From an uncultured Candidatus Saccharibacteria bacterium (GTDB taxonomy: Bacteria > Patescibacteriota > Minisyncoccia > Phycocordibacterales > UBA2100), in contig CAZZHR010000002.1 in the NCBI GenBank assembly GCA_964654205.1, forward strand, positions 65,800 to 129,799: a stretch of 64,000 nt of DNA. The letters run 5' to 3'. The notes under the pieces were generated by a model, which was not told the origin of the DNA, did no database searches, and saw only the letters and a program-made list of their open reading frames with translations. The translations under genes were made by a program, and so were the position numbers. Positions 3,102 through 62,805 of this stretch are shown here, piece by piece (position 1 is the first letter of the stretch; each line of letters opens with the position of its first letter).

Positions 3102-3938
3102 TTATTGAGCTACCGCGCGCAACTCTTCGAGGAACTTCGGCGCCTCGTCCTTCGTCGGCGGTTTGCCGTGCCATTTGTAGTCGTTCTCGATACTCTTGAT
3201 GCCCTTCCCTGGCGTCACATGCGCGAGGATGAGCGTCGGCTTGTCCTGGATCGACTTCGCTTCATCGCACGCAGCGATGAACTGCGCGATGTTATGACCA
3301 TCTATCTCTACGACGTGCCAGCCGAATGCCTCGTACTTTGCCCGCATCGGCTCGAGCGACATCACGTCTTCTGTGTTCCCCTCTATCTGGATATTGTTGC
3401 GGTCCATGATGGCGACGAGGTTCGATAATCGATAGTGTCCGGCGAACATCGCGCCCTCCCACGTGTTGCCCTCTTGCTGCTCACCATCGGACATCGCGCA
3501 AAAAATACGGAACTTTTTGTTGTCCATCCGCGCGGCGTACGCATACCCCGCCGCTTGTGAGAGCCCGCTCCCGAGCGGTCCCGAGGTCGTTTCCACACCT
3601 GGCAACTTCTCTCGCTCTGGGTGCCCCTGGAGACGCGAACCGAACTTGCGGAGCGTCAGGCATTCTTCTACCGGAAAGTATCCCGCATGCGCCATCGTCG
3701 CGTAGCGAACCGGCGTGATGTGACCGTTGGAAAGAAACAGGCGGTCACGCTCCTCCCATTCGGGATTCTTCGGGTCGTTTTTGAGTACGTGGAAATAGAG
3801 TGCGGTGAAAATGTCCGTCATGCCTAAGGGGCCGGCTGTGTGCCCCGAACCTGCCGCCGCCAGCATTTCAATAATCGTCTGTCGAACCTTGTTAGCCTGC
3901 TGTTCCAGCCTCTGTATTTCGGCATCCGTAAGAGCCAT
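3102..3938 (-). CDS. transketolase, N-terminal subunit (TPP-binding)
   Basis: Motifs GSGHTAGPLGMTD, LSNGH and MSDGEQQEGNTWEG. Start trimmed to MALTDAEIQ. A TATAAT box lies 6 nt upstream. Confidence 0.9.
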   Translation of the reverse strand: MALTDAEIQRLEQQANKVRQTIIEMLAAAGSGHTAGPLGMTDIFTALYFHVLKNDPKNPEWEERDRLFLSNGHITPVRYATMAHAGYFPVEECLTLRKFGSRLQGHPEREKLPGVETTSGPLGSGLSQAAGYAYAARMDNKKFRIFCAMSDGEQQEGNTWEGAMFAGHYRLSNLVAIMDRNNIQIEGNTEDVMSLEPMRAKYEAFGWHVVEIDGHNIAQFIAACDEAKSIQDKPTLILAHVTPGKGIKSIENDYKWHGKPPTKDEAPKFLEELRAVAQ

Positions 3939-10114: not shown

Positions 10115-13100
10115 CTAAATTTCCATCCCGAGCATGAGCGCGAGGGCTTGGACGAAGCTGTTTGATGTGGCGGCAGGGGCGGCAGAATATTTGAACGGCT
10201 GCTCCGCGAACGCGGCGTAGACCATTGTGTCGCCGCTCGTGTTGAGGAAGGTGGTTCTTAACTTGAAACCATTGGCTAGAGAATCAATGACGTCTGCGGG
10301 TGCCGACTCTTGAGACGAACCATCGGCGCCCAAAACGCCACTTATTGGATTGTAGGTGTTCCTTGTTGTATCCAACATCCACCAACTACCCGTCGTTCCA
10401 ACCGCGGGCTTAAGCATGACAAACCGCGGCTTGAAGCCGGTGTAGACGAACGGACCGTCGGTCGAGCCATTGCCGGTGTAGGAGCCAAATGCCGACATGC
10501 CGGTCGTGGAGGCAAAGAGGTACGCCGCGTACTCGCTCCCGCCACCTACGCCGCCCGGTGTGCTCGAGGAATCGGTGAGTGCGCCGTTCTCCGTAAATGC
10601 TCCGCCTCGCCCCCTGTTGATGTGCCAATTGTCGCTCGTTCCAGAGAAGTACACATCGGGGACGAGTGTGGAACCGACCCCGATGACGGGCACGGGTTCG
10701 CCATTCGCGTCGATGAAGAAGCGCCTATTGGCTTCGACCGAGAGGTCCAGGCTCGTCCCGAACTTTATCCAAAGGTCTTTGATGTCTCCCGTGAGCTTGA
10801 AGCCCGCGTCCGGTTCCGCCCCCACCGCGAAGTTGCCTCTCGTCCAGTCGATCGTGTCGTTGGTAAGCGTGGAGCCGCCCGAATTGAAGTCGCTCACATC
10901 GTTGCGGTAGACCCAGGCGGAGCCGGTGTTTAGGTCGACCGAGAAGAGGTAGTGCACCCAGCCACTCGAGGCGAGCGTCTGCGTCGAGGAGTTCAGGATC
11001 ATGTCGAAGTTGTTGGACGCGTCGAGCCCCACGACCTGGATCACCTGCGTACCCGCCGTGCGTACGATGTAGAAGCCCGTGCCGAGGTCTCCCGTCGCTG
11101 CGATCGTCTGGTTGGTGCTATCTGCGCCCGTAATGTTGACCCAAAAAGAGACAGTTAACCGTTTGCCGTCCACGACGTCTGTGAGGTTTGCACCGCGCGT
11201 GAGGTAATCGTTGGTACCGTCGAAATGCGCGGCGCCGCCTTTGTTCACATCGGCATTCGTCCCCACGGTGAAGGCGCTTGCGGTAGGCGCGGTGTCGTTC
11301 CAGTAGGTCGCGTCGTCGGCAGTCGCAGCTGTGCTGTTGAGCAATAGATAGTCAGTCGCCGGTGCAGATGTATTGGACGAGTGATAGACCGCCCAATCGC
11401 CGGAGCCCGAAGCTTGTGTGTACGAGCGGAGCATCGCGCTCCCCTGATCGGCGATCGCCACGCTTGTGGCAGAGAGCGCCGCAACCGCGGGGTTCGGAGT
11501 CGTGCCGTCGACGATACCGCTCCCGTCGGCCACCTCTCTCCAATCGGTACCGTCGAAGGCGTACACACGGAGCTCGTTGGTCGTTGAGTCCACGAATGCC
11601 ACTCTGTTGCGGCCCAGCGCCGCCATGCCCGTCGAGCCTCCACTCGATTCGATTGTGAGAGAATTGCCCACCTGAGACCAATTCGTGCCGTCGAAATCAT
11701 ACGCGCGCAGCTGCTTTGTCCCCGAGTAGTCGTAGAGGGCTACGCGCGAAGCCGAGAGCGCCGCGAGGGAAGGGAGTGTGATGCCGCTGATGTTGAGCTC
11801 GTTCCCAGTCAGAGTCCAGTTGGTGCCGTCGAAATCATACGCGCGCAAGTCGTCGTTGGTGCCGTCGATAAAGGCTATGCGGTCGGACAGGAGCCCCGCA
11901 AGCGCGGGAGATCCCACGCCCGAGATGTTGAGCTCGTTGCCGGTCAGCGACCATGTAGAGCCGTTGAAATCGTATGCGCGCAAGTCGTCATTCCCGCTGT
12001 CAATAAATGCGACACGGCTCGAAAGCATAGTTGCGAGCGAGGGCGACCCTATACCCGAGATGCTGAGTCCGCTTCCTGTGAGAGACCAATTCGACGAGCT
12101 CAGGTCGTATGCGCGCAAAGACGCATTCCCGAAATCAACATATGCCACCCTCGTCGCGGAGAGCGCGGCAAGCGCGGGAGTATTGATACCGCTTATCGTG
12201 AGGCTGTTGCTCGTCTGTGCCCAGTCTCCGCGCACCTCTTTCACGAGCATGAAGTCCGGCGCTTTACCGAGCGAATGGCTCACCGTCCTGCTCTTACCCG
12301 TCCCCTTGTACGAGACGATGTCGAACCCGGCCTCCGCCGTCTCTTTCCAGAGCCATGAGATGTAGTTCTTGCCGCTCGTGTTGACGTTGGCCGAGCTCGC
12401 GCCGGAGCCGAGGCTGAAGCCGTTGTCGTCGTACGACGTGAGCGATTCCGTGTCGTCGACATCTTCACCGGCGGTCAGATTGGAGCTGAGCCACGCCTGC
12501 ACCCCGCGCAGAGCATCGAAGAGCGCATGGTTGGTCGAAGCGTCGGTACGGTTCTTTATCCACACGAGGTCGGGGCTAAAGCCGGTAACCGTTGTGCTTG
12601 TACCCGTCTGGTAGACAGACTTTGCCGCACCCGTGCCTGCGTACGCGATCGCATCAAAATAATTCTTCGGCACCACCACATCCGGCTCGGGCAAGTTGGC
12701 GGTCGAGAGTGCTTTGAAGCCAGAGGGCGGTTCGTATCTGAAATATCCCCCCGCCGCCGAGTAGTGCGTCGTCGTAGTTGTCCCTGGCTGACCAAAGTTT
12801 ATTGAAGCGCTTGCACCCGTGTAGACGGCGAGTGATGGAAATACAGGGTCAGCTCCGCTGAGTGTGGCGGCAGCTCCTGTGCCTCCTACTGGGTCACCAC
12901 TGTTCTGCCATGTCCCGTTTTTTGAGAAGTAAATCTTCTTGTTATCCAAATCAAGCGCTACACCGACGACATCGTTCGTTGTAAACGTATTGCCGTACGC
13001 GGCATTGGTCCCTCCGTTGTACGTCGTACCATCATGCCCGTAGTAGCTGATGCCCCCATTAGCAGACGAGCCGCCGGGAAATGCGCCGAGTGTCATCGGA

Positions 13101-14242
13101 GTGAACGCTGTGGAAGTTGCAACCCCGACGAGATAAAAATTACTGCCACTACTCTGTGCACCAGCTGTCACTTCCCAATACCATTTACCACTCGTGACAC
13201 CAATAATTGAGAGTGCCGTAAGAAAATTCCCAGCACTATGAGTCATACTCAAGTTGCCTTGAGAAAGAGTCAGCGAAGAGTTTTTGTAAATCGAGTTAAG
13301 TGTCGCAAACGCGTTCGTCGGGGTGTCGATGACTTGGTCGGTTGCGTCGAGGTTGTTGGCGGTCCAGTTGTTGCCGTTGCCGGATGTGTCGGTGCCAAGC
13401 GCCGCACTGTTGCCAAAGGCGAGCTTGAAGCCATTTGTCCCATACGTGCCCGTGTACGACTTCGGCCGCCAGTATCCATTGGCGTCGTACTCGCCGAAAG
13501 AGGTGGGCGTGAGCGCCTGCCCGTCGACAAAATGTAGGTCGGAGAGGTAGACATCAATCGAGCAACATGCACCCCCTTGTTGCTGACCGATACGATTGTT
13601 CGCATTGGCGAGCGCGAATTGGTACTCAGCGTTTTGTGCGGGATAATTCGCAGCGTCAAACGCCGTAATCTGCATCCCATCGATGTACATCTTCACTCTA
13701 TTCGCTGCAGTCGCATCTGTCGTGTCCCACACAACTACGACATGCATCCATTTTGATGGATCGCGAAAAAGTGCCGAGCTGCGAAGTTCGGCGGAAGTAG
13801 CCCCGCCGAAGGCGAAACTCAGGTTGTCCGCTGCAGCGCCGCCCGCCCCGAATTCAAGCCACGAAGAATTGCTCGACGAACCATCGTAGCCGGCAACTAT
13901 CGTTTGTCTCGTCCCCAAATTCCCCCTTTTTATCCACGTAGATATCGTTCCCTTCTTACGGTCAGCGGGTGCACCGGAGAATGTCTTGCTTAGGTTTGCA
14001 CTGTCATCGTCGTTGAAGCGAGCGCTGTTCGCGATCGTGTACGCCGCCTCCGCCTGCGGGAGTGTGAGAAGCGCAAACTGCGCGCCAAACCACGCCAGCG
14101 CGACAATCGCCGCCACAACCACCCGCCACCTCCACAGCCCGTTCAAAGCGTTCAAGGAGGCGTGCAAGGGGCGCCCTTGCACATGTGCAAGGGCGCCCCT
14201 TGCGCCGGAGATTTTGAGAAACTTGGTGAAGAGATTACTCAT
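10115..14242 (-). CDS. giant (1375 aa) signal-anchored surface protein: LamG, SPRY, six 45-aa repeats, LamG, plus three copies of a phage-structural-protein-like module
   Basis: One uninterrupted ORF with an N-terminal TM (VVVAAIVALAWFGAQFALL). Its domain signatures are listed as separate features. Its start forms an ATGA overlap with the RAYT stop. Confidence 0.9.
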   Translation of the reverse strand: MSNLFTKFLKISGARGALAHVQGRPLHASLNALNGLWRWRVVVAAIVALAWFGAQFALLTLPQAEAAYTIANSARFNDDDSANLSKTFSGAPADRKKGTISTWIKRGNLGTRQTIVAGYDGSSSNSSWLEFGAGGAAADNLSFAFGGATSAELRSSALFRDPSKWMHVVVVWDTTDATAANRVKMYIDGMQITAFDAANYPAQNAEYQFALANANNRIGQQQGGACCSIDVYLSDLHFVDGQALTPTSFGEYDANGYWRPKSYTGTYGTNGFKLAFGNSAALGTDTSGNGNNWTANNLDATDQVIDTPTNAFATLNSIYKNSSLTLSQGNLSMTHSAGNFLTALSIIGVTSGKWYWEVTAGAQSSGSNFYLVGVATSTAFTPMTLGAFPGGSSANGGISYYGHDGTTYNGGTNAAYGNTFTTNDVVGVALDLDNKKIYFSKNGTWQNSGDPVGGTGAAATLSGADPVFPSLAVYTGASASINFGQPGTTTTTHYSAAGGYFRYEPPSGFKALSTANLPEPDVVVPKNYFDAIAYAGTGAAKSVYQTGTSTTVTGFSPDLVWIKNRTDASTNHALFDALRGVQAWLSSNLTAGEDVDDTESLTSYDDNGFSLGSGASSANVNTSGKNYISWLWKETAEAGFDIVSYKGTGKSRTVSHSLGKAPDFMLVKEVRGDWAQTSNSLTISGINTPALAALSATRVAYVDFGNASLRAYDLSSSNWSLTGSGLSISGIGSPSLATMLSSRVAFIDSGNDDLRAYDFNGSTWSLTGNELNISGVGSPALAGLLSDRIAFIDGTNDDLRAYDFDGTNWTLTGNELNISGITLPSLAALSASRVALYDYSGTKQLRAYDFDGTNWSQVGNSLTIESSGGSTGMAALGRNRVAFVDSTTNELRVYAFDGTDWREVADGSGIVDGTTPNPAVAALSATSVAIADQGSAMLRSYTQASGSGDWAVYHSSNTSAPATDYLLLNSTAATADDATYWNDTAPTASAFTVGTNADVNKGGAAHFDGTNDYLTRGANLTDVVDGKRLTVSFWVNITGADSTNQTIAATGDLGTGFYIVRTAGTQVIQVVGLDASNNFDMILNSSTQTLASSGWVHYLFSVDLNTGSAWVYRNDVSDFNSGGSTLTNDTIDWTRGNFAVGAEPDAGFKLTGDIKDLWIKFGTSLDLSVEANRRFFIDANGEPVPVIGVGSTLVPDVYFSGTSDNWHINRGRGGAFTENGALTDSSSTPGGVGGGSEYAAYLFASTTGMSAFGSYTGNGSTDGPFVYTGFKPRFVMLKPAVGTTGSWWMLDTTRNTYNPISGVLGADGSSQESAPADVIDSLANGFKLRTTFLNTSGDTMVYAAFAEQPFKYSAAPAATSNSFVQALALMLGMEI
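10748..11236 (-). other. second LamG/concanavalin-like (Laminin_G_3-type) domain, aa ~1003-1165
   Basis: AAHFDGTNDYL...LTVSFWVN...GWVHYLFSVDLNTGSAWVYRND...FAVGAE fits the Laminin_G_3 pattern. Confidence 0.65.
11408..12217 (-). repeat. six tandem in-frame ~135-bp (45-aa) repeats, likely a beta-propeller
   Basis: Unit consensus LRAYDFDGTNW(S/T)LTGNELNISG(I/V)GSPSLAALSxxRVAFxDxxNDx. The GAAATCRTAYGCGCGCA motif recurs about every 135 nt on the plus strand. Confidence 0.85.
12788..13345 (-). other. SPRY/B30.2-like domain, aa ~300-485
   Basis: The TSGKWYWEV signature, then VVGVALDLDNKKIYFSKNG and FPSLAVYTGASASINFG, match the SPRY pattern. Confidence 0.7.
13508..14035 (-). other. first LamG/concanavalin-like domain, aa ~70-245
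   Basis: GTISTWIKR...WMHVVVVWDTT...VKMYIDG...SDLHFVDGQAL fits the Laminin_G_3 pattern. Confidence 0.65.
14163..14204. repeat. REP-like palindrome doublet: TGCAAGGGGCGCCCTTGCA-CATG-TGCAAGGGCGCCCCTTGCg
   Basis: Two 19-nt near-palindromes (8-bp stems) in inverted orientation form a 42-nt palindrome. It lies within codons 13-27 of the 1375-aa ORF, 35 nt downstream of the RAYT stop. Confidence 0.85.
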
Positions 14243-14901
14243 ACTTCGTCGAGCATTAATTCTCGGACTGTCGATTTCCGTGCGACGATGTCGTCGAAAG
14301 CGTCTTCAACGAAACGCTGGTACTCGCGCGCACTCTTGAAGTGCTCAAGGATTGTTGCCGTATCACACAATCCCCCGGTATCTGGCGAGAGGTACTCGGC
14401 ATAGCTACTATGCGGCCACTTTCGAGCGTCTCGCACAAGCTTCGCCACTTGGGGATTCACATGAATATAGGCCGAGAGGTGTTTGAGTTGCGTATCGTCT
14501 ACCACATGCACGGCCTTGATGCGATCCTGAAATACATGTCCCACATGATCGTACTTGCGATTGAAGTACATCGAGTAGCTCGTCAGTAGTTTCAGAAAAA
14601 GTTTACTAATCGATACATCTTTGTTCTGTCGTATGAGAAAATGGAAATGATTAGGCATAAGACAGTACACAGCAATCGAGAATGCATCTCTTTCGAATGG
14701 CTCGATGCGAATCTGGACGCGCTTCCCGCCGGTGTGCAAGGGCGCCCCTTGCACATCGCGACCGAGAGAGCGCATAAGTCGGTCTAGGAAAACTCGTGCA
14801 TCCTCATCATCTCGAAGGATGTCCATCTTGCCATTGCCGCGGCTGAAGAGGTGGTACCACTCTCCTGTCGAGAACTCTTTGTAGTCGCGTGAATTTGTCA
14901 T
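14239..14901 (-). CDS. REP-associated tyrosine transposase (RAYT) / IS200-like Y1 transposase homolog
   Basis: WYHLFSRGN, the HUH motif CLMPNHFHFLI, GHVFQDR and YIHVNP (catalytic Tyr region). There is no second IS gene. Confidence 0.85.
   Translation of the reverse strand: MTNSRDYKEFSTGEWYHLFSRGNGKMDILRDDEDARVFLDRLMRSLGRDVQGAPLHTGGKRVQIRIEPFERDAFSIAVYCLMPNHFHFLIRQNKDVSISKLFLKLLTSYSMYFNRKYDHVGHVFQDRIKAVHVVDDTQLKHLSAYIHVNPQVAKLVRDARKWPHSSYAEYLSPDTGGLCDTATILEHFKSAREYQRFVEDAFDDIVARKSTVRELMLDEV
14735..14753. repeat. third copy of the REP-like palindrome, inside the RAYT ORF and in frame
   Basis: TGCAAGGGCGCCCCTTGCA on the plus strand. It encodes VQGAPLH between the N-terminal strand and the HUH motif. 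Confidence 0.85.
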
Positions 14902-24625: not shown

Positions 24626-27151
24626 CTACACGACAATGCGCCACCCGTCTGCGAGTAGGGGCTCGGCCTTCTTAAATTTCATTTCCTTGGTCTCAGTGCC
24701 ATTCGTAATAATGACTTTGTCGTTGCGACGGTATTCTTTCTTGCCCGCAATGGGCGCTTGTGCGGTGATACTCCGCGCCGCTCGCGATACCGCTTGTTCC
24801 CCCGCCGTCGCCGTGTGCACTCGCGGCGCCGCTCCGATATGTGGAATTAGTGTTCGTACGTGCGCAGCATACGTCTCCTCTAGCTGCTGGAAAAGCCTGC
24901 GACCTTCTTTTTTGTACTCGACGAGCGGATCGCGCTGTCCGTATGCGCGGAGATTCACGCTCGAGCGCAGGTACTCCATAGCTTCGAGATGCTCCACCCA
25001 GAGAAAGTCGATGCCCTGTAAGAGTATGCGGCGCACCGTCGGGACAAACGCATCCGTAAGCTCCTCTTTCTTTTTCTGTATAGCTTGAGCAAGAGCCTCA
25101 TCAGAGAGCGCGAGCCGCTCGAGCTCAGCCAGTACCGCCCCCTCTCCACCCGTCAGGAGGTCACGGCGACGTGTGTAGATGCTCTTGCGCTGGATGTTGA
25201 GCACATCGTCGTATGCGAGCACATGCTTGCGTGAGTCGAAGTGTATCTCCTCTATTCGCGTCTGCGCCTTCTCGAGCGAGCGCGTGATCATTTTGTTGAA
25301 TATCGGCTCGTCCTCGGGAATATTGAAGCTCCCCATCACCCGCTTGATGACGTCGCTCGCAAAAACGCGCATGAGACTGTCCTCAAGCGAAACGTAGAAC
25401 TGTGTCGCACCCGGGTCCCCTTGTCGGCCTGAGCGGCCACGCAGCTGGTTGTCGATGCGGCGCGCTTCGTGGCGCTCGGTGCCGAGCACAAAGAGGCCGC
25501 CGAGACTTTTTACTTCCTCGTAACTCTCCGGTGTCCCTGGATTGCCGCCGAGCTTAATGTCGACGCCTCGGCCGGCCATGTTGGTCGCGATGGTTACCGC
25601 GCCCTTCTTCCCGGCTTGCGCGACGATCTCACCCTCGCGCTCGTGATTCTTTGCGTTGAGCACTTCGTGCGGGATGCCCTCTTGCTTGAAGTACACCGAG
25701 AGCAGCTCGTTCTTTTCCACCGATACGGTACCGATGAGGACGGGCTGCCCCTTCTCGTGCAGCTCGCGCACGCGCTTCGCTATGGCTTTCATCTTGCCGT
25801 TCTCGGTCTGCAGGATGAGGTCGTCGAGGTCTGTTCGCTGAACGGGCTTGTTGGTCGGCACACTCGCTACGTTCAGGCCATATACCTTGTAGAATTCTTC
25901 GGACGAAGTGGCTGCGGTACCCGTCATGCCCGCGAGCTTGTCGTAGAGGCGGAAATAATTCTGGAAAGTTATCGATGCGAAAGTACGGCTCTCCTGTTGG
26001 ACTGAGACACCCTCCTTTGCCTCTATGGCCTGGTGGAGGCCATCAGACCACCTGCGCCCTGGCTGCATGCGACCCGTGAACTCGTCGACAATGATGACAG
26101 TCCCATCTCGCACTACGTAGTCCTTGTCTCGCTCAAAGAGAGCTTTTGCTCTCACGGCGGTCTCGAGGTGATGCACCATCTTGATGCCAGCATCCGTATA
26201 TATATTGTCTATCCCGAGCGCTGCCTGCGCCTTCTCGATACCTGCATCGGTCATCGCTATCTGTTTGTGCTTTTCGTCTACGGTGAAGTCCTCCTCGCGA
26301 ACCATGCCGCGCGCAATCTGCGCGAATCGCCCGTAGAGCGATTCTGCCTGCGAGACGGGTGCCGAGATAATCAGTGGCGTGCGTGCCTCGTCGATGAGGA
26401 TGGAATCTATCTCGTCGACTATTGCGAACCGGTACCCGCCATCCTGCGGGACGCGCTGACGCAAACCTGCTGCCTCGTATTCAAGGTTGTCGCGGAGGTA
26501 GTCGAAGCCGAATTCATTGTTGGTACCGTAGGTGATGTCGGCGGCATATGCTTCCCCGCGCGTACACGGACGAAGGAAATCTCGCGCCACCTTGAAGCTA
26601 CCTTCTGTATCCTGCTGCGCCTCTTCCTCCGCCTTGAGTTCCGGCGGAACATGCGATGGATCGTATATAAATGACGACTCGTGGTTGAGCACTCCCACGG
26701 TGAGGCCGAGTGCATAGTATATTTGCCCCATCCATGCGCCATCGCGGCGCGAGAGGTAGTCGTTGACAGTGATGACATGTACGCCTTTGCCCTCGAGGGC
26801 GTTGAGGTACGCTGGGAGCGTCGCGACGAGTGTCTTGCCCTCGCCCGTGCGCATCTCTGCGATGCCACCCTGGTGGAGTATCATCCCACCGATGAGCTGC
26901 ACGTCGAAGTGACGTTGACCGAGCGTCCTGCGCGACGCCTCCCTCACCGCGGCAAATGCCTCAGGCGCGAGGCTATCAAGGGATTCCCCGCCCGAAATGC
27001 GGACCTTGAATTCCGCGCTCTTTCCCTTGAGCGCCTCGTCGGTGAGCGCCGTAAACGTGTCTTCAAGTGCATTGACAGCAGCCACAATAGGCTGCGCCTT
27101 GCGGAGCGCCGCGACATTGGTATCTCCGAAGAGTCCTTTCCAAAATGACAT
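24626..27151 (-). CDS. secA: preprotein translocase ATPase SecA
   Basis: MRTGEGKTLVATLPAYLNAL, IVDEIDSILIDEARTPLIIS, GMTGTA, TNMAGRGVDIKLGG and LRGRSGRQGDPG. Trimmed to MSFWKGLFG. Confidence 0.95.
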   Translation of the reverse strand: MSFWKGLFGDTNVAALRKAQPIVAAVNALEDTFTALTDEALKGKSAEFKVRISGGESLDSLAPEAFAAVREASRRTLGQRHFDVQLIGGMILHQGGIAEMRTGEGKTLVATLPAYLNALEGKGVHVITVNDYLSRRDGAWMGQIYYALGLTVGVLNHESSFIYDPSHVPPELKAEEEAQQDTEGSFKVARDFLRPCTRGEAYAADITYGTNNEFGFDYLRDNLEYEAAGLRQRVPQDGGYRFAIVDEIDSILIDEARTPLIISAPVSQAESLYGRFAQIARGMVREEDFTVDEKHKQIAMTDAGIEKAQAALGIDNIYTDAGIKMVHHLETAVRAKALFERDKDYVVRDGTVIIVDEFTGRMQPGRRWSDGLHQAIEAKEGVSVQQESRTFASITFQNYFRLYDKLAGMTGTAATSSEEFYKVYGLNVASVPTNKPVQRTDLDDLILQTENGKMKAIAKRVRELHEKGQPVLIGTVSVEKNELLSVYFKQEGIPHEVLNAKNHEREGEIVAQAGKKGAVTIATNMAGRGVDIKLGGNPGTPESYEEVKSLGGLFVLGTERHEARRIDNQLRGRSGRQGDPGATQFYVSLEDSLMRVFASDVIKRVMGSFNIPEDEPIFNKMITRSLEKAQTRIEEIHFDSRKHVLAYDDVLNIQRKSIYTRRRDLLTGGEGAVLAELERLALSDEALAQAIQKKKEELTDAFVPTVRRILLQGIDFLWVEHLEAMEYLRSSVNLRAYGQRDPLVEYKKEGRRLFQQLEETYAAHVRTLIPHIGAAPRVHTATAGEQAVSRAARSITAQAPIAGKKEYRRNDKVIITNGTETKEMKFKKAEPLLADGWRIVV

Positions 27152-27189
27152 GGATACCCATCCTACCACTGTGCGACTTTTCAATCCAT

Positions 27190-27222
27190 GAAAAGAAGAA
27201 GCCTCCTTTCGGAGGCTTCTTC
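27190..27222 (-). terminator. rho-independent terminator: 12-bp stem GAAGAAGCCTCC/GGAGGCTTCTTC, then TTTTC
   Basis: A perfect stem with a 4-nt loop and a T-tract on the minus strand, 5 nt downstream of the 23-codon ORF stop. Confidence 0.8.
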
Positions 27223-27226
27223 GGGA

Positions 27227-27298
27227 CTACGCGCGCTTCTTGCGCTTCGTGGCCTTCTTTTTCTTGGCTGTCTTTTTCGCCTTCTTTTTCTTTGCCAT
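27227..27298 (-). CDS. unannotated 23-aa polybasic micro-protein MAKKKKAKKTAKKKKATKRKKRA
   Basis: I translated it by hand. It is below the ORF-track cutoff. It runs ATG to TAG, has its own strong terminator, and an AT-rich -10-like AATATT lies 7 nt upstream. Confidence 0.45.
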   Translation of the reverse strand: MAKKKKAKKTAKKKKATKRKKRA

Positions 27299-27439
27299 GG
27301 TCGTAAATATTTTGAGAGTATTAAACTCGACCTTCGCTTCGCGCGCGAAACGCTACAGCGTTTACATAATTATTGCACTCATGCATGTAAAGAAATGTTT
27401 TTTGAAAAAATTGTGTGGATAACTCTTTTATTTTTTAAA

Positions 27440-27759
27440 ATGTATCTCTGATGTAGAAATCAGTTATATGAAATTACTTTCACAGGAAGATATTCAGTAC
27501 GTACTTGAGAAGACATTTCCTTCCGTACACTCCGCGTCGCTCGCCCATACGCAGAAACACCCTTCTGAGGGGTGTTTCTGAAAGACGCACAGCGGAGGAC
27601 GGGTGCGAGCTCCAAAAAAAGTGAAAGTCTTATGTGAGTGCCGCCGCCCTCCGCAATACGCCCTTTTAGTCCTACGACAAAGAGTAACACCCTGTCCTTG
27701 AGTGACAACCTCTATTCGTTGCACACTACTCAGATACGAGACTTGCGTATAATCAGCCA
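27440..27759 (-). ncRNA. candidate structured RNA of unknown class, possibly a long 3'UTR
   Basis: It lies downstream of a duplicated TATAAT promoter element at 27766-27771. It contains a 10-bp hairpin (27553-27579), a long imperfect hairpin (GCGGAGG 27592-27598 pairs with CCTCCGC 27648-27654) and a terminal hairpin at 27448-27463 followed by a T-rich run. No convincing ORF is present. Confidence 0.3.
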
Positions 27760-27772
27760 TGGCGGATTATAA
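27747..27772. promoter_or_regulatory. 26-bp near-palindrome GTATAATCAGCCATGGCGGATTATAA, a candidate operator that contains TATAAT
   Basis: Half-sites TATAATC / GATTATA lie around a central CCATGG. The 18-bp core ATGGCGGATTATAAACAA (27759-27776) is repeated exactly at 28456-28473. Confidence 0.5.
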
Positions 27773-27786
27773 ACAAGCGCGTGAGC

Positions 27787-28422
27787 CTATCGTTCTCCCA
27801 AACCGAAGTGCACTCGCAAGGGTTTATCGTACTCGATTGCGTCCGCAATAATGTATCTCACCTCCGTTCGCAGCGATGCGTCTAGCTTCAGAAGCGTTAT
27901 GATTTCTTCACAATCATACGGGTGCACCCATACGCTGTTTTGCAATCGGTGAAAACCAAGTCTCTTTAATATTTCGCGTACACGATCTCGCGTAGAGCGC
28001 CGCGCATGCGGAATGTCGAATATCACGACTCGCCAACGTCCGTCCCATCGACGCGGCCTAGGTATTTCTACGGCCGAAAGCCGGATGCGTTCCGCATGTG
28101 ACTTTCCCCTCTCCGTCAGTATGGGGTAACGTTTGCCCGAGTGCCGCATAAACTCGACCATCCCTTTTTTCTTCAATCTCGAGAGTGTCTCCCGCAGCCT
28201 CTGCGTGGGCTGCGGGGGCAGGATTACATCAAGGTGTTCTCTTTTGATGAGCGCAGCGACTTTCGGCGCCATCACCGCTACCGTGAGAATTCCTCCGAGA
28301 GCGAGCGTACCTATCACAGCTCTTTCTATCGATCCGCGTCTCAACCGCAGACGAACTCCACTCTCCTGGGATACGCGCGATTCTTGCTCACGCCTCTTCT
28401 GGGTATTCTGTTTTTGCCGCAT
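27787..28422 (-). CDS. PaaX-family-like regulator with a Cas2/VapD-fold C-terminal domain
   Basis: LRETLSRLKKKGMVE (winged-helix-like), then WDGRWRVVIFDIPHARRSTRDRVREILKRLGFHRLQNSVWVHPYD, typical of PaaX C-terminal or Cas2-like domains. ATG 28422 has TACAAT 6 nt upstream. TTG 28437 is an alternative start. Confidence 0.7.
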   Translation of the reverse strand: MRQKQNTQKRREQESRVSQESGVRLRLRRGSIERAVIGTLALGGILTVAVMAPKVAALIKREHLDVILPPQPTQRLRETLSRLKKKGMVEFMRHSGKRYPILTERGKSHAERIRLSAVEIPRPRRWDGRWRVVIFDIPHARRSTRDRVREILKRLGFHRLQNSVWVHPYDCEEIITLLKLDASLRTEVRYIIADAIEYDKPLRVHFGLGER

Positions 28423-28428
28423 GAGTGC

Positions 28429-28434
28429 ATTGTA
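28429..28434 (-). promoter_or_regulatory. -10 box TACAAT 6 nt before ATG 28422 (leaderless geometry)
   Basis: The minus strand reads gtTACAATgcactcATG. Confidence 0.45.
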
Positions 28435-28443
28435 CAAACTTGT

Positions 28444-28469
28444 TTATAACTCGCTATGGCGGATTATAA
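28444..28469. promoter_or_regulatory. second copy of the palindromic operator/promoter element: TTATAACTCGCTATGGCGGATTATAA
   Basis: An imperfect palindrome that shares the exact 18-bp core with 27759-27776. It lies 22-50 nt upstream of the regulator gene start. Confidence 0.5.
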
Positions 28470-28622
28470 ACAATTCAGGAATGTTCCCTTTAGTCCTGTT
28501 GTGCAGTGTGCATAAACTGAATACCGCCCTTTCGGGCGGTACTTCAGCGACTTTCAATCTGCGAGCCACACTTTGTGGCACTCACGTATTCATTATATGT
28601 ACCGCGCAGCGACGCGCAAGTA

Positions 28623-62768: not shown

Positions 62769-62805
62769 CCTCCCATGAGTGACCTCGTAGGTCACTCATG
62801 GGAGG
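62769..62805 (-). terminator. 16-bp perfect hairpin: CCTCCCATGAGTGACC/GGTCACTCATGGGAGG
   Basis: A 5-nt loop, 19 nt downstream of the rsmI stop. The arm TCACTCATGGG is repeated once more at 62806-62816. No T-tract. Confidence 0.5.

Follow-up and report, generated by a model that had tools for sequence, protein, structure and literature searches.

The stretch of DNA analyzed here, called the window throughout, comprises 64,000 nucleotides of contig CAZZHR010000002.1 from an uncultured Candidatus Saccharibacteria bacterium (assembly GCA_964654205.1). On its minus strand, 76 nt upstream of secA, is an open reading frame (ORF) of 23 codons (27298-27227, with the ATG at 27298-27296 and a TAG stop codon at 27229-27227) that encodes the lysine-rich peptide MAKKKKAKKTAKKKKATKRKKRA. 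This ORF had been pointed out in a preliminary description of the sequence, and its translation agreed with that description. On recounting, 15 of the 23 residues were basic (13 lysines and 2 arginines) rather than 16, as first stated. The gene downstream was recognized as secA (ORF 27151-24626, ATG at 27151) from its match to the Pfam family SecA_DEAD (E = 3.9e-115) and is followed by gatB. A PaaX_M/Cas2-like gene and a Wzy_C/TPR gene are located upstream of the small ORF. The AT-rich island described next to the ORF is real, with a GC content of 0.24 to 0.39 between 27300 and 27499 compared to ∼0.55 to 0.6 on either side. No tRNA or tmRNA was found, and none overlaps the region of the small ORF. 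A search of the whole window against Rfam gave no match at the gathering threshold, and there were only chance-level matches at 27150-27850. The ORF had been proposed to have its own transcription signals and not to be noise, and the evidence from homologous loci, terminator, and promoter presented below agrees with this. As judged from these features, the ORF is very probably a genuine, separately transcribed monocistronic micro-gene.

Table 1. Predicted features of the oligolysine locus in the window, in the direction of transcription
Feature	Position	Strand	Basis
Consensus DnaA box TTATCCACA, 124 nt upstream of the ATG	27414..27422	minus (ORF strand)	perfect-box scan, conserved position
18-nt A/T-rich, UP-element-like spacer, then weak -35-like TTTCTT (27395-27390)	27390..27413	minus	spacing comparison
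Extended -10 element TGcAATAAT, conserved distal promoter	27369..27377	minus	box 39 nt upstream of hexamer
GGTCGA leader motif	27327..27332	minus	motif comparison
Proximal AATATT hexamer, 7 nt before the ATG	27306..27311	minus	sequence
Oligolysine micro-protein ORF	27227..27298	minus	translation, homologous ORFs, codon evidence, alignment
Intrinsic terminator (12-bp stem, GAAA loop, TTTT)	27191..27222	minus	stem scan, folding, family hairpins
secA extended -10 element TGgTAGGAT, 8 nt before the ATG at 27151 (neighbor of the small gene)	27160..27168	minus	sequence

The stop codon is followed by a hairpin in which 27222-27211 pairs without mismatch with 27206-27195, giving a stem of 12 bp (seven of them G-C); the loop is GAAA and the tail TTTTC (27194-27190). 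Stem and tail agree with the previous description, except that 4 nt, and not 5 nt, separate the stop codon from the first base of the stem. A G+C-rich stem-loop directly before a U tract is the layout of an intrinsic terminator, and the same layout was found throughout the family of related loci. When folded alone, the region 27190-27300 had a predicted free energy of -39.6 kcal/mol (z = -5.1 versus shuffled sequences). In a window-wide scan for perfect stems, two comparable sites were detected, both on the minus strand and with T-rich tails; their stems measure 13 bp (63611-63582) and 12 bp (57300-57273). The hairpin is therefore among the three best terminator-like sites in the window, and its designation as clearly the best did not hold.

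The DNA surrounding relatives of SecA in one-genome-per-species contigs and metagenomes (1.10 Mb, both strands) was compared with the window. The closest SecA relatives were only 55 to 68% identical to that of the window, and the named loci among them belong to Paceibacteria or Kaiserbacteria-type Patescibacteria. An equivalent Lys/Ala-rich ORF, 13 to 106 amino acids long and followed by its own strong hairpin, was present at 16 further loci. At 12 of these the ORF is on the secA strand directly upstream of secA: L001 (16 residues, MAKKKAKKVAKKGKKK), L003 (31), L004 (25, MAAKKRKAAKRKPAKKRKATKKKRA), L005 (37), L006 (76), L007 (65), L081 (14), L083 (19), L084 (13), L085 (18), L086 (106), and L091 (34). 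At L009 a 37-residue ORF is separated from secA by a gene that starts MKIQIKSTNIELNEAIRNYIEEK and resembles the gene for the ribosome hibernation factor (hpf) by its start, a likeness that was not family-searched. The module of L015 is inverted; murB and an ATP-grasp gene flank it, and hpf and secA come next. L163 carries the module in an unrelated context away from secA, near ispD and beside a sequence read as a tRNA gene. This locus and L164 were found through over-extended database gene calls that contain ORFs beginning MPAKK. Loci with lower SecA identity, from other lineages, had no oligolysine ORF upstream of secA. In two close relatives, L002 and L008, what reads by eye as the C-terminal end of a murB-like gene (not family-searched) is followed directly by secA with no oligolysine ORF between them, so that some members of the clade either can do without the gene or carry it at another place.

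The preliminary description had proposed that conservation of the reading frame, rather than of just the DNA, should be examined in related genomes. The orthologous regions retained the frame, and both the DNA and the hairpin sequences were wholly different. When short ATG-started ORFs in the comparison set were filtered for K/R richness, only 16 passed, 13 of which were syntenic or motif-bearing relatives; the other three were without any associated motif. In the family alignment K3 alone was invariant, and A2, K12, and K15 were nearly so. The long members contain repeats (AAPKKKK in L007, KKVAKK in L006, and AKRKPAKRKRK in L086), the number of which varies among relatives. The family is defined by its density of charge, a short start (MA/MP-KK), a basic end rich in K/R, and a length that drifts freely through repeats. 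The control region is better conserved than the sequence of the oligolysine gene itself. These proteins of 13 to 106 residues very probably represent a lineage-specific, previously undescribed oligolysine family in Paceibacteria-type Patescibacteria.

A small ORF placed directly ahead of secA is reminiscent of SecM-type arrest peptides, which are found upstream of secA, secDF, and yidC and are over-represented upstream of sec genes (PMC12992588). If the ORF were a cis-acting leader peptide of this kind, ribosomes on the polylysine codons would modulate the terminator and in this way control secA. Thirteen loci retain this place directly ahead of secA, and in the window the stop codon is just 4 nt from the terminator stem, as such an attenuator might have it. 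However, secA has an extended -10 element of its own, which directly precedes the start codon in the window, and L004, L005, L007, L081, and L084 likewise have such an element 6 to 9 nt before the secA ATG. Because of this promoter, the hairpin does not qualify as a secA attenuator; unlike in the SecM arrangement, the small ORF is set apart from secA by a terminator and by a promoter for secA itself. The 70 nt after the stop codon folded with -16.5 to -33.7 kcal/mol in the 14 secA-linked members, and a hairpin with a T run also follows the stop codon in L163 and L164. The stem sequences were unrelated and not complementary to the ORF, and the distance from stop codon to stem ranged from ∼2 to ∼24 nt, so that there is no conserved antiterminator geometry. 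Furthermore, the hpf-like gene (so called from its start) intervenes in L009, the linkage to secA is broken in L015, where the module is inverted, and in L163, where it is unlinked, and the peptides have no signal, transmembrane, or other hydrophobic segment and no arrest motif. Control of secA by attenuation or a leader peptide was therefore rejected as exceedingly improbable, given the separate secA promoter, the variable hairpin geometry, and the inverted or unlinked modules. Location upstream of secA is a matter of synteny, not a regulatory link, and secA would be a separate transcription unit starting 23 nt past the terminator.

The position of the secA -10 element implies that the secA mRNA would be leaderless or nearly so. 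A TAnnnT hexamer, often preceded by TG or TGG, was found 6 to 9 nt before the start of ∼15 of the 34 long ORFs in the window, and Shine-Dalgarno-like sequences were found in 8 of the 34. Examples of the hexamer are in the 1101 region on the plus strand and before the starts at 3938, 6905, 22682, 24196, 27151, 31686, and 61079, all on the minus strand. From this pattern, leaderless mRNAs appear to be widely used in the organism, secA and gatB included.

Several lines of evidence bear on whether the oligolysine ORF is translated. An alternative explanation for the locus is that it specifies a small RNA or dual-function RNA, in which the (AAG)n tract and the GGTCGR motif of the leader are the functional parts and the ORF is incidental or weakly translated. 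The leader of 49 to 178 nt is long for such a short ORF and carries a conserved hexamer, and a strong terminator together with 5' hairpins is typical of stable small RNAs. In addition, the purine-rich tracts of the shortest members (the window ORF, L081, L083, and L084) are free of stop codons in all frames (0 and 0 in the two other frames). Because purine-rich DNA has no stops in any frame, openness by itself is weak evidence of coding in short members. However, the other two frames of the long members contained stop codons (4 and 6 in L006, 6 and 2 in L009, 3 and 1 in L005, and 2 and 3 in L091). All members begin ATG-GCN, ATG-CCN, or ATG-AAA, with the ATG-GCN and ATG-CCN starts being further frame-specific signals. 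At the C terminus, the residues A-T-K and K-R-A are common to the window ORF and L004 and are specified by different synonymous codons (GCC/GCT, CGC/CGA, and GCG/GCA).

Codon choice also argues against an RNA with an incidental ORF. The share of AAG among lysine codons was greater in the small ORF than in secA of the same genome in 14 of 14 genomes, with values such as 0.50 versus 0.06 in L001 and 0.82 versus 0.30, and the longest run of A in any family ORF was no more than 7 nt. A preference for AAG and short A runs would be predicted where decoding has to avoid slippage on poly(A). Shine-Dalgarno sequences fit the proposed start codons in L163 and L164 (AGGAGG or GGAGG, 8 to 10 nt before the ATG of MPAKK) and in L009 (AGGA, 7 nt before the ATG of MAKK). 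The final 15 to 25 nt of every leader, just ahead of the ATG, were predicted to be unpaired. When the 14 leaders were folded, no common secondary structure emerged, and the locus has no Rfam match. We consider it very unlikely that the locus acts mainly as a small RNA or dual-function RNA. In view of the stops in the other frames, the synonymous ends, the AAG bias, the fitting Shine-Dalgarno sequences, and the unpaired leader ends, translation of the oligolysine ORF is very likely.

The control region shared with the relatives, as revealed by alignment of the upstream DNA, contains a consensus DnaA box. There are only two perfect DnaA boxes in the window, the other being at 12556 inside GC-rich DNA. 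Perfect TTATCCACA sequences were found at the equivalent place in nine relatives (L004, L005, L006, L007, L081, L084, L085, L091, and L163), and L001 and L083 have boxes with one mismatch. These perfect boxes share the strand of the ORF and are located between -102 and -233 relative to the ATG. Nine of the 17 perfect boxes in the comparison set were within the same-strand interval from -260 to -90 of the 14 family ORFs, compared to ∼0.02 expected by chance. A -10 hexamer ([AG]ATAAT or GATACT) begins 39 to 43 nt after the box in nine loci; L163 has a gap of 49 nt. In L004, L005, L006, L084, L085, and L091, a TTGTNN -35 hexamer is located 17 to 20 nt after the box, with a spacer of 16 to 17 nt to the -10 hexamer. 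The promoter regions of the window and L081 have TGCAATAAT in common. The consensus 9-mer therefore holds a conserved position relative to the promoter, which is what a DnaA-regulated promoter would be expected to have. From the consensus and its conservation, we infer that DnaA binds at the box, and the position of the -10 element would put the transcription start near 27362.

The preliminary description had taken the AATATT hexamer just before the ATG for a -10-like box of the ORF. The hexamer is present and may be a second, leaderless promoter, as the genome often has TAnnnT 6 to 9 nt before start codons, but the promoter conserved in the family is further upstream, and none of the other family members had a consistent equivalent of AATATT. 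A further conserved element is the GGTCGR motif. Of the 14 secA-linked loci, 11 have GGTCGA or GGTCGG in the leader, 33 to 95 nt ahead of the ATG, and L015 also has the motif, at -63, against a background of 0.53 per kb. The carriers besides the window are L003, L005, L006, L007, L009, L015, L081, L083, L084, L086, and L091. The motif reads GTCGAC or GGTCGACC in four loci, and neither its flanks nor its structural context is conserved.

Conservation of a DnaA box beside an AT-rich stretch might also indicate that the locus is mainly a DnaA-binding site, either a replication origin or a titration site of the datA/DARS type, with the ORF a by-product of transcription that modulates occupancy. 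L015, in which four box-like sites, one of them perfect, occur within 200 bp, would suit this explanation. Against it, most loci have a single box, which is at a fixed distance from the promoter and not in a cluster, and the conservation of the ORF at the protein level would be left unexplained. There is no change in the sign of GC skew at 27.4 kb, and the flanking genes are co-directional. A replication origin was therefore rejected on account of the missing skew switch, the usually single box, and the co-directional genes, and we regard a primary role of the locus in binding DnaA as highly improbable.

Database searches placed the oligolysine proteins in no known family. The window peptide had no match in NCBIfam (E ≤ 10) or Pfam (E ≤ 1), and profile searches of both collections with the window peptide and five relatives gave nothing significant. 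There was no match among PDB chain sequences at E ≤ 10, and none of eight family peptides was on record in an exact look-up in a collection of 15 billion proteins. A phmmer-type search with the 76-residue relative gave no hit at E ≤ 0.001, and with the 106-residue relative mostly lysine-rich tails of SWIB/MDM2 proteins and a few over-extended gene calls with MPAKK. The 76-residue relative scored 11.7 bits against PF07382 (cut-off, 40) and 10.1 to 11.4 bits against NF038052 and NF038053 (cut-offs, 80 to 135). The sole resemblances in the databases are thus to Hc2/H1-like profiles and lysine-rich SWIB/MDM2 tails, all weak and compositional. Neither a gene of this kind nor any reference to DnaA boxes in Patescibacteria came up in searches of the full-text literature. 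Two small proteins that surfaced in a low-complexity search, P0014 and P0024, have (KRKPA)n repeats fused to a conserved C-terminal segment ending VRVIHKGPRGGRYYISKGRKVYL and represent a different lysine-repeat family.

The oligolysine proteins were compared with H1-like systems, namely Hc1 and Hc2 of Chlamydia (PF07382), the H1-like proteins of Burkholderia and Bordetella (NF038053), AlgP of Pseudomonas, and the PAKKA tails of actinobacterial HU. Like these, they are Lys/Ala/Pro-rich, of low complexity, and presumably disordered, and they contain tandem repeats whose number varies between strains or species; the long members L007 and L086 resemble H1 C-terminal domains. The difference is that most family members have 13 to 40 residues and no folded domain and are far shorter than any described H1-like protein. 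To our knowledge, no conserved DnaA-box promoter has been described for H1-like genes. Lysine-rich H1-like proteins of bacteria are known already, and what is new is a stand-alone oligolysine of 13 to 40 residues with a conserved DnaA-box promoter. Protamines and other DNA-condensing peptides are similarly tiny and 60 to 70% basic, and function in both cases would rest on charge density. However, protamines are eukaryotic, arginine-rich, and sperm-specific and have no homology to the proteins described here, in which lysine dominates and which are found in a bacterium.

The ribosome provides another precedent for very small polybasic proteins. The genes for Thx, bS22, and bL37 of bacteria and eL41 of eukaryotes and archaea are commonly missed by gene callers. 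The preliminary description had leaned toward proteins of the eL41, Thx, and bS22 type, and an analogue of these or of bL37 might fill a cavity in the rRNA. The short members (13 to 25 residues) are comparable to such proteins (∼24 to 33 residues) in size and charge, and the gene shares its neighborhood with hpf, the gene for a ribosome hibernation factor, in L009 and L015. Some ribosomal proteins are known to be missing from Patescibacteria (PMC12641178). On the other hand, peptides that occupy a specific ribosomal site are fixed in both length and sequence, whereas the oligolysine family varies eightfold in length (13 to 106 residues) through repeat expansion, has almost no fixed positions, and matches nothing in NCBIfam, Pfam, or PDB, even at E = 10. 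A conserved DnaA-box promoter is also atypical of ribosomal protein genes. A ribosomal role therefore appears quite unlikely, and of the candidates named initially, a protamine-like nucleoid protein fits better.

Charge density, the MA/MP-KK start, the basic end, and length variation driven by repeats favor a polycation similar to the histone H1 tail or protamines. In the proposed mechanism, a sigma-70-type promoter with the extended -10 element at 27377-27369 would drive the small gene, with a predicted DnaA site ∼40 nt upstream of the -10 element, at roughly -60 to -52 from the putative start. The transcript of ∼170 nt would begin with a leader of ∼65 nt, A/U-rich and without structure directly ahead of the start codon, continue through the 23 codons of the ORF, and end at an efficient intrinsic terminator. 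After removal of methionine, the product would be a disordered oligolysine of 22 residues with a net charge of ∼+15. It would act through this charge as a non-specific nucleic-acid counter-ion or condensing agent, much as do the C-terminal tail of histone H1, protamines, and the lysine-rich tails of bacterial Hc2 and HU; binding to nucleic acid is suggested by the composition of the peptide.

DnaA acts as a transcription factor, and known DnaA-box promoters of the sda type couple expression to the state of replication initiation. Synthesis of the oligolysine would be coupled to DnaA, and hence to replication state, in a similar manner. The sda gene of Bacillus subtilis is also a small-protein gene with one or more DnaA boxes just upstream of its promoter. 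It differs in that Sda is a folded 46-residue kinase inhibitor, unrelated in sequence and function, and in that the oligolysine genes usually have a single putative box at about -60 to -52.

Several points weigh against this interpretation. It offers no explanation for the conserved GGTCGR motif in the leader. The -35 element in the window is weak, and there is a possible second, proximal promoter. With just one box, binding of DnaA in vivo may be only weak, or the site may be used by a different protein. The similarity to H1-like proteins is compositional only and far below the family thresholds, and 13 residues, the length of one member, would be very few for a nucleoid protein of the classical kind. 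The available relatives are evolutionarily distant, and both translation and function were deduced from sequence alone. Considering all of this, we regard the complete interpretation, an independent micro-gene with a DnaA-box promoter whose product is a charge-acting, DNA-binding polycation tied to replication, as about equally probable to be right or wrong. The functional part, a nucleic-acid counter-ion or condensing peptide with replication-tied synthesis, is based on composition and on DnaA being a known transcription factor and is put forward tentatively, with chances that at best approach an even balance.

A more specific and rather unlikely version of this function is that the oligolysine of 13 to 40 residues serves as a "genetic polyamine," the level of which is set by DnaA and which neutralizes and compacts newly made DNA or feeds back on initiation. 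Feedback would operate by masking oriC or acidic phospholipids. If this is true, the chromatin would have a component coupled to replication that is much smaller than all nucleoid proteins known so far and that escapes both gene callers and tryptic proteomics. Gene callers usually require at least 30 codons, and bias filters for low complexity in hidden Markov model searches cause polylysine to be overlooked. Trypsin cuts polylysine to single residues, to which ordinary proteomics is blind. For the gene itself, there is strong comparative evidence of selection, and such micro-genes can be found by looking for conserved arrangements of promoter and terminator. Should the product prove to be an abundant polycation, it would bear on the packing of DNA and ribosomes and on charge balance in cells of ∼0.01 cubic micrometer with very limited metabolism, and the DnaA box would be a first handle on cell-cycle-linked gene control in this uncultured phylum.

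Further features were observed near the locus and elsewhere in the window. A 69-nt stretch at 27586-27654 was 93% identical to positions 2464-2528 of L081, in which its direction with respect to secA is reversed; L086 and L002 had matches as well. A long hairpin (-44.4 kcal/mol; z = -6.0) was predicted for the minus strand at approximately 27575-27670, with no Rfam match. The stretch may be a small RNA of a new type or a mobile repeat.

The PaaX_M/Cas2-like gene (ORF 27787-28437, minus strand, 216 amino acids) is located where most relatives have murB and is bracketed by imperfect inverted repeats of 36 nt (27742-27777 and 28438-28473; 83% identity). Inverted repeats around a gene in the place of murB suggest that it is an inserted cassette. 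A murB remnant was sought in the gap at 27460-27790, and tblastn found nothing there.

A perfect palindrome of 40 nt with an 18-bp stem, GCAAGGGGCGCCCTTGCACATGTGCAAGGGCGCCCCTTGC, is present at 14164-14203, and a related palindrome of 23 nt is 570 nt away at 14733-14755. Both are near the end of an ORF of 1375 amino acids and before one of 2172 amino acids. Additional long perfect palindromes were found at 62769-62805 and 1959-1992.

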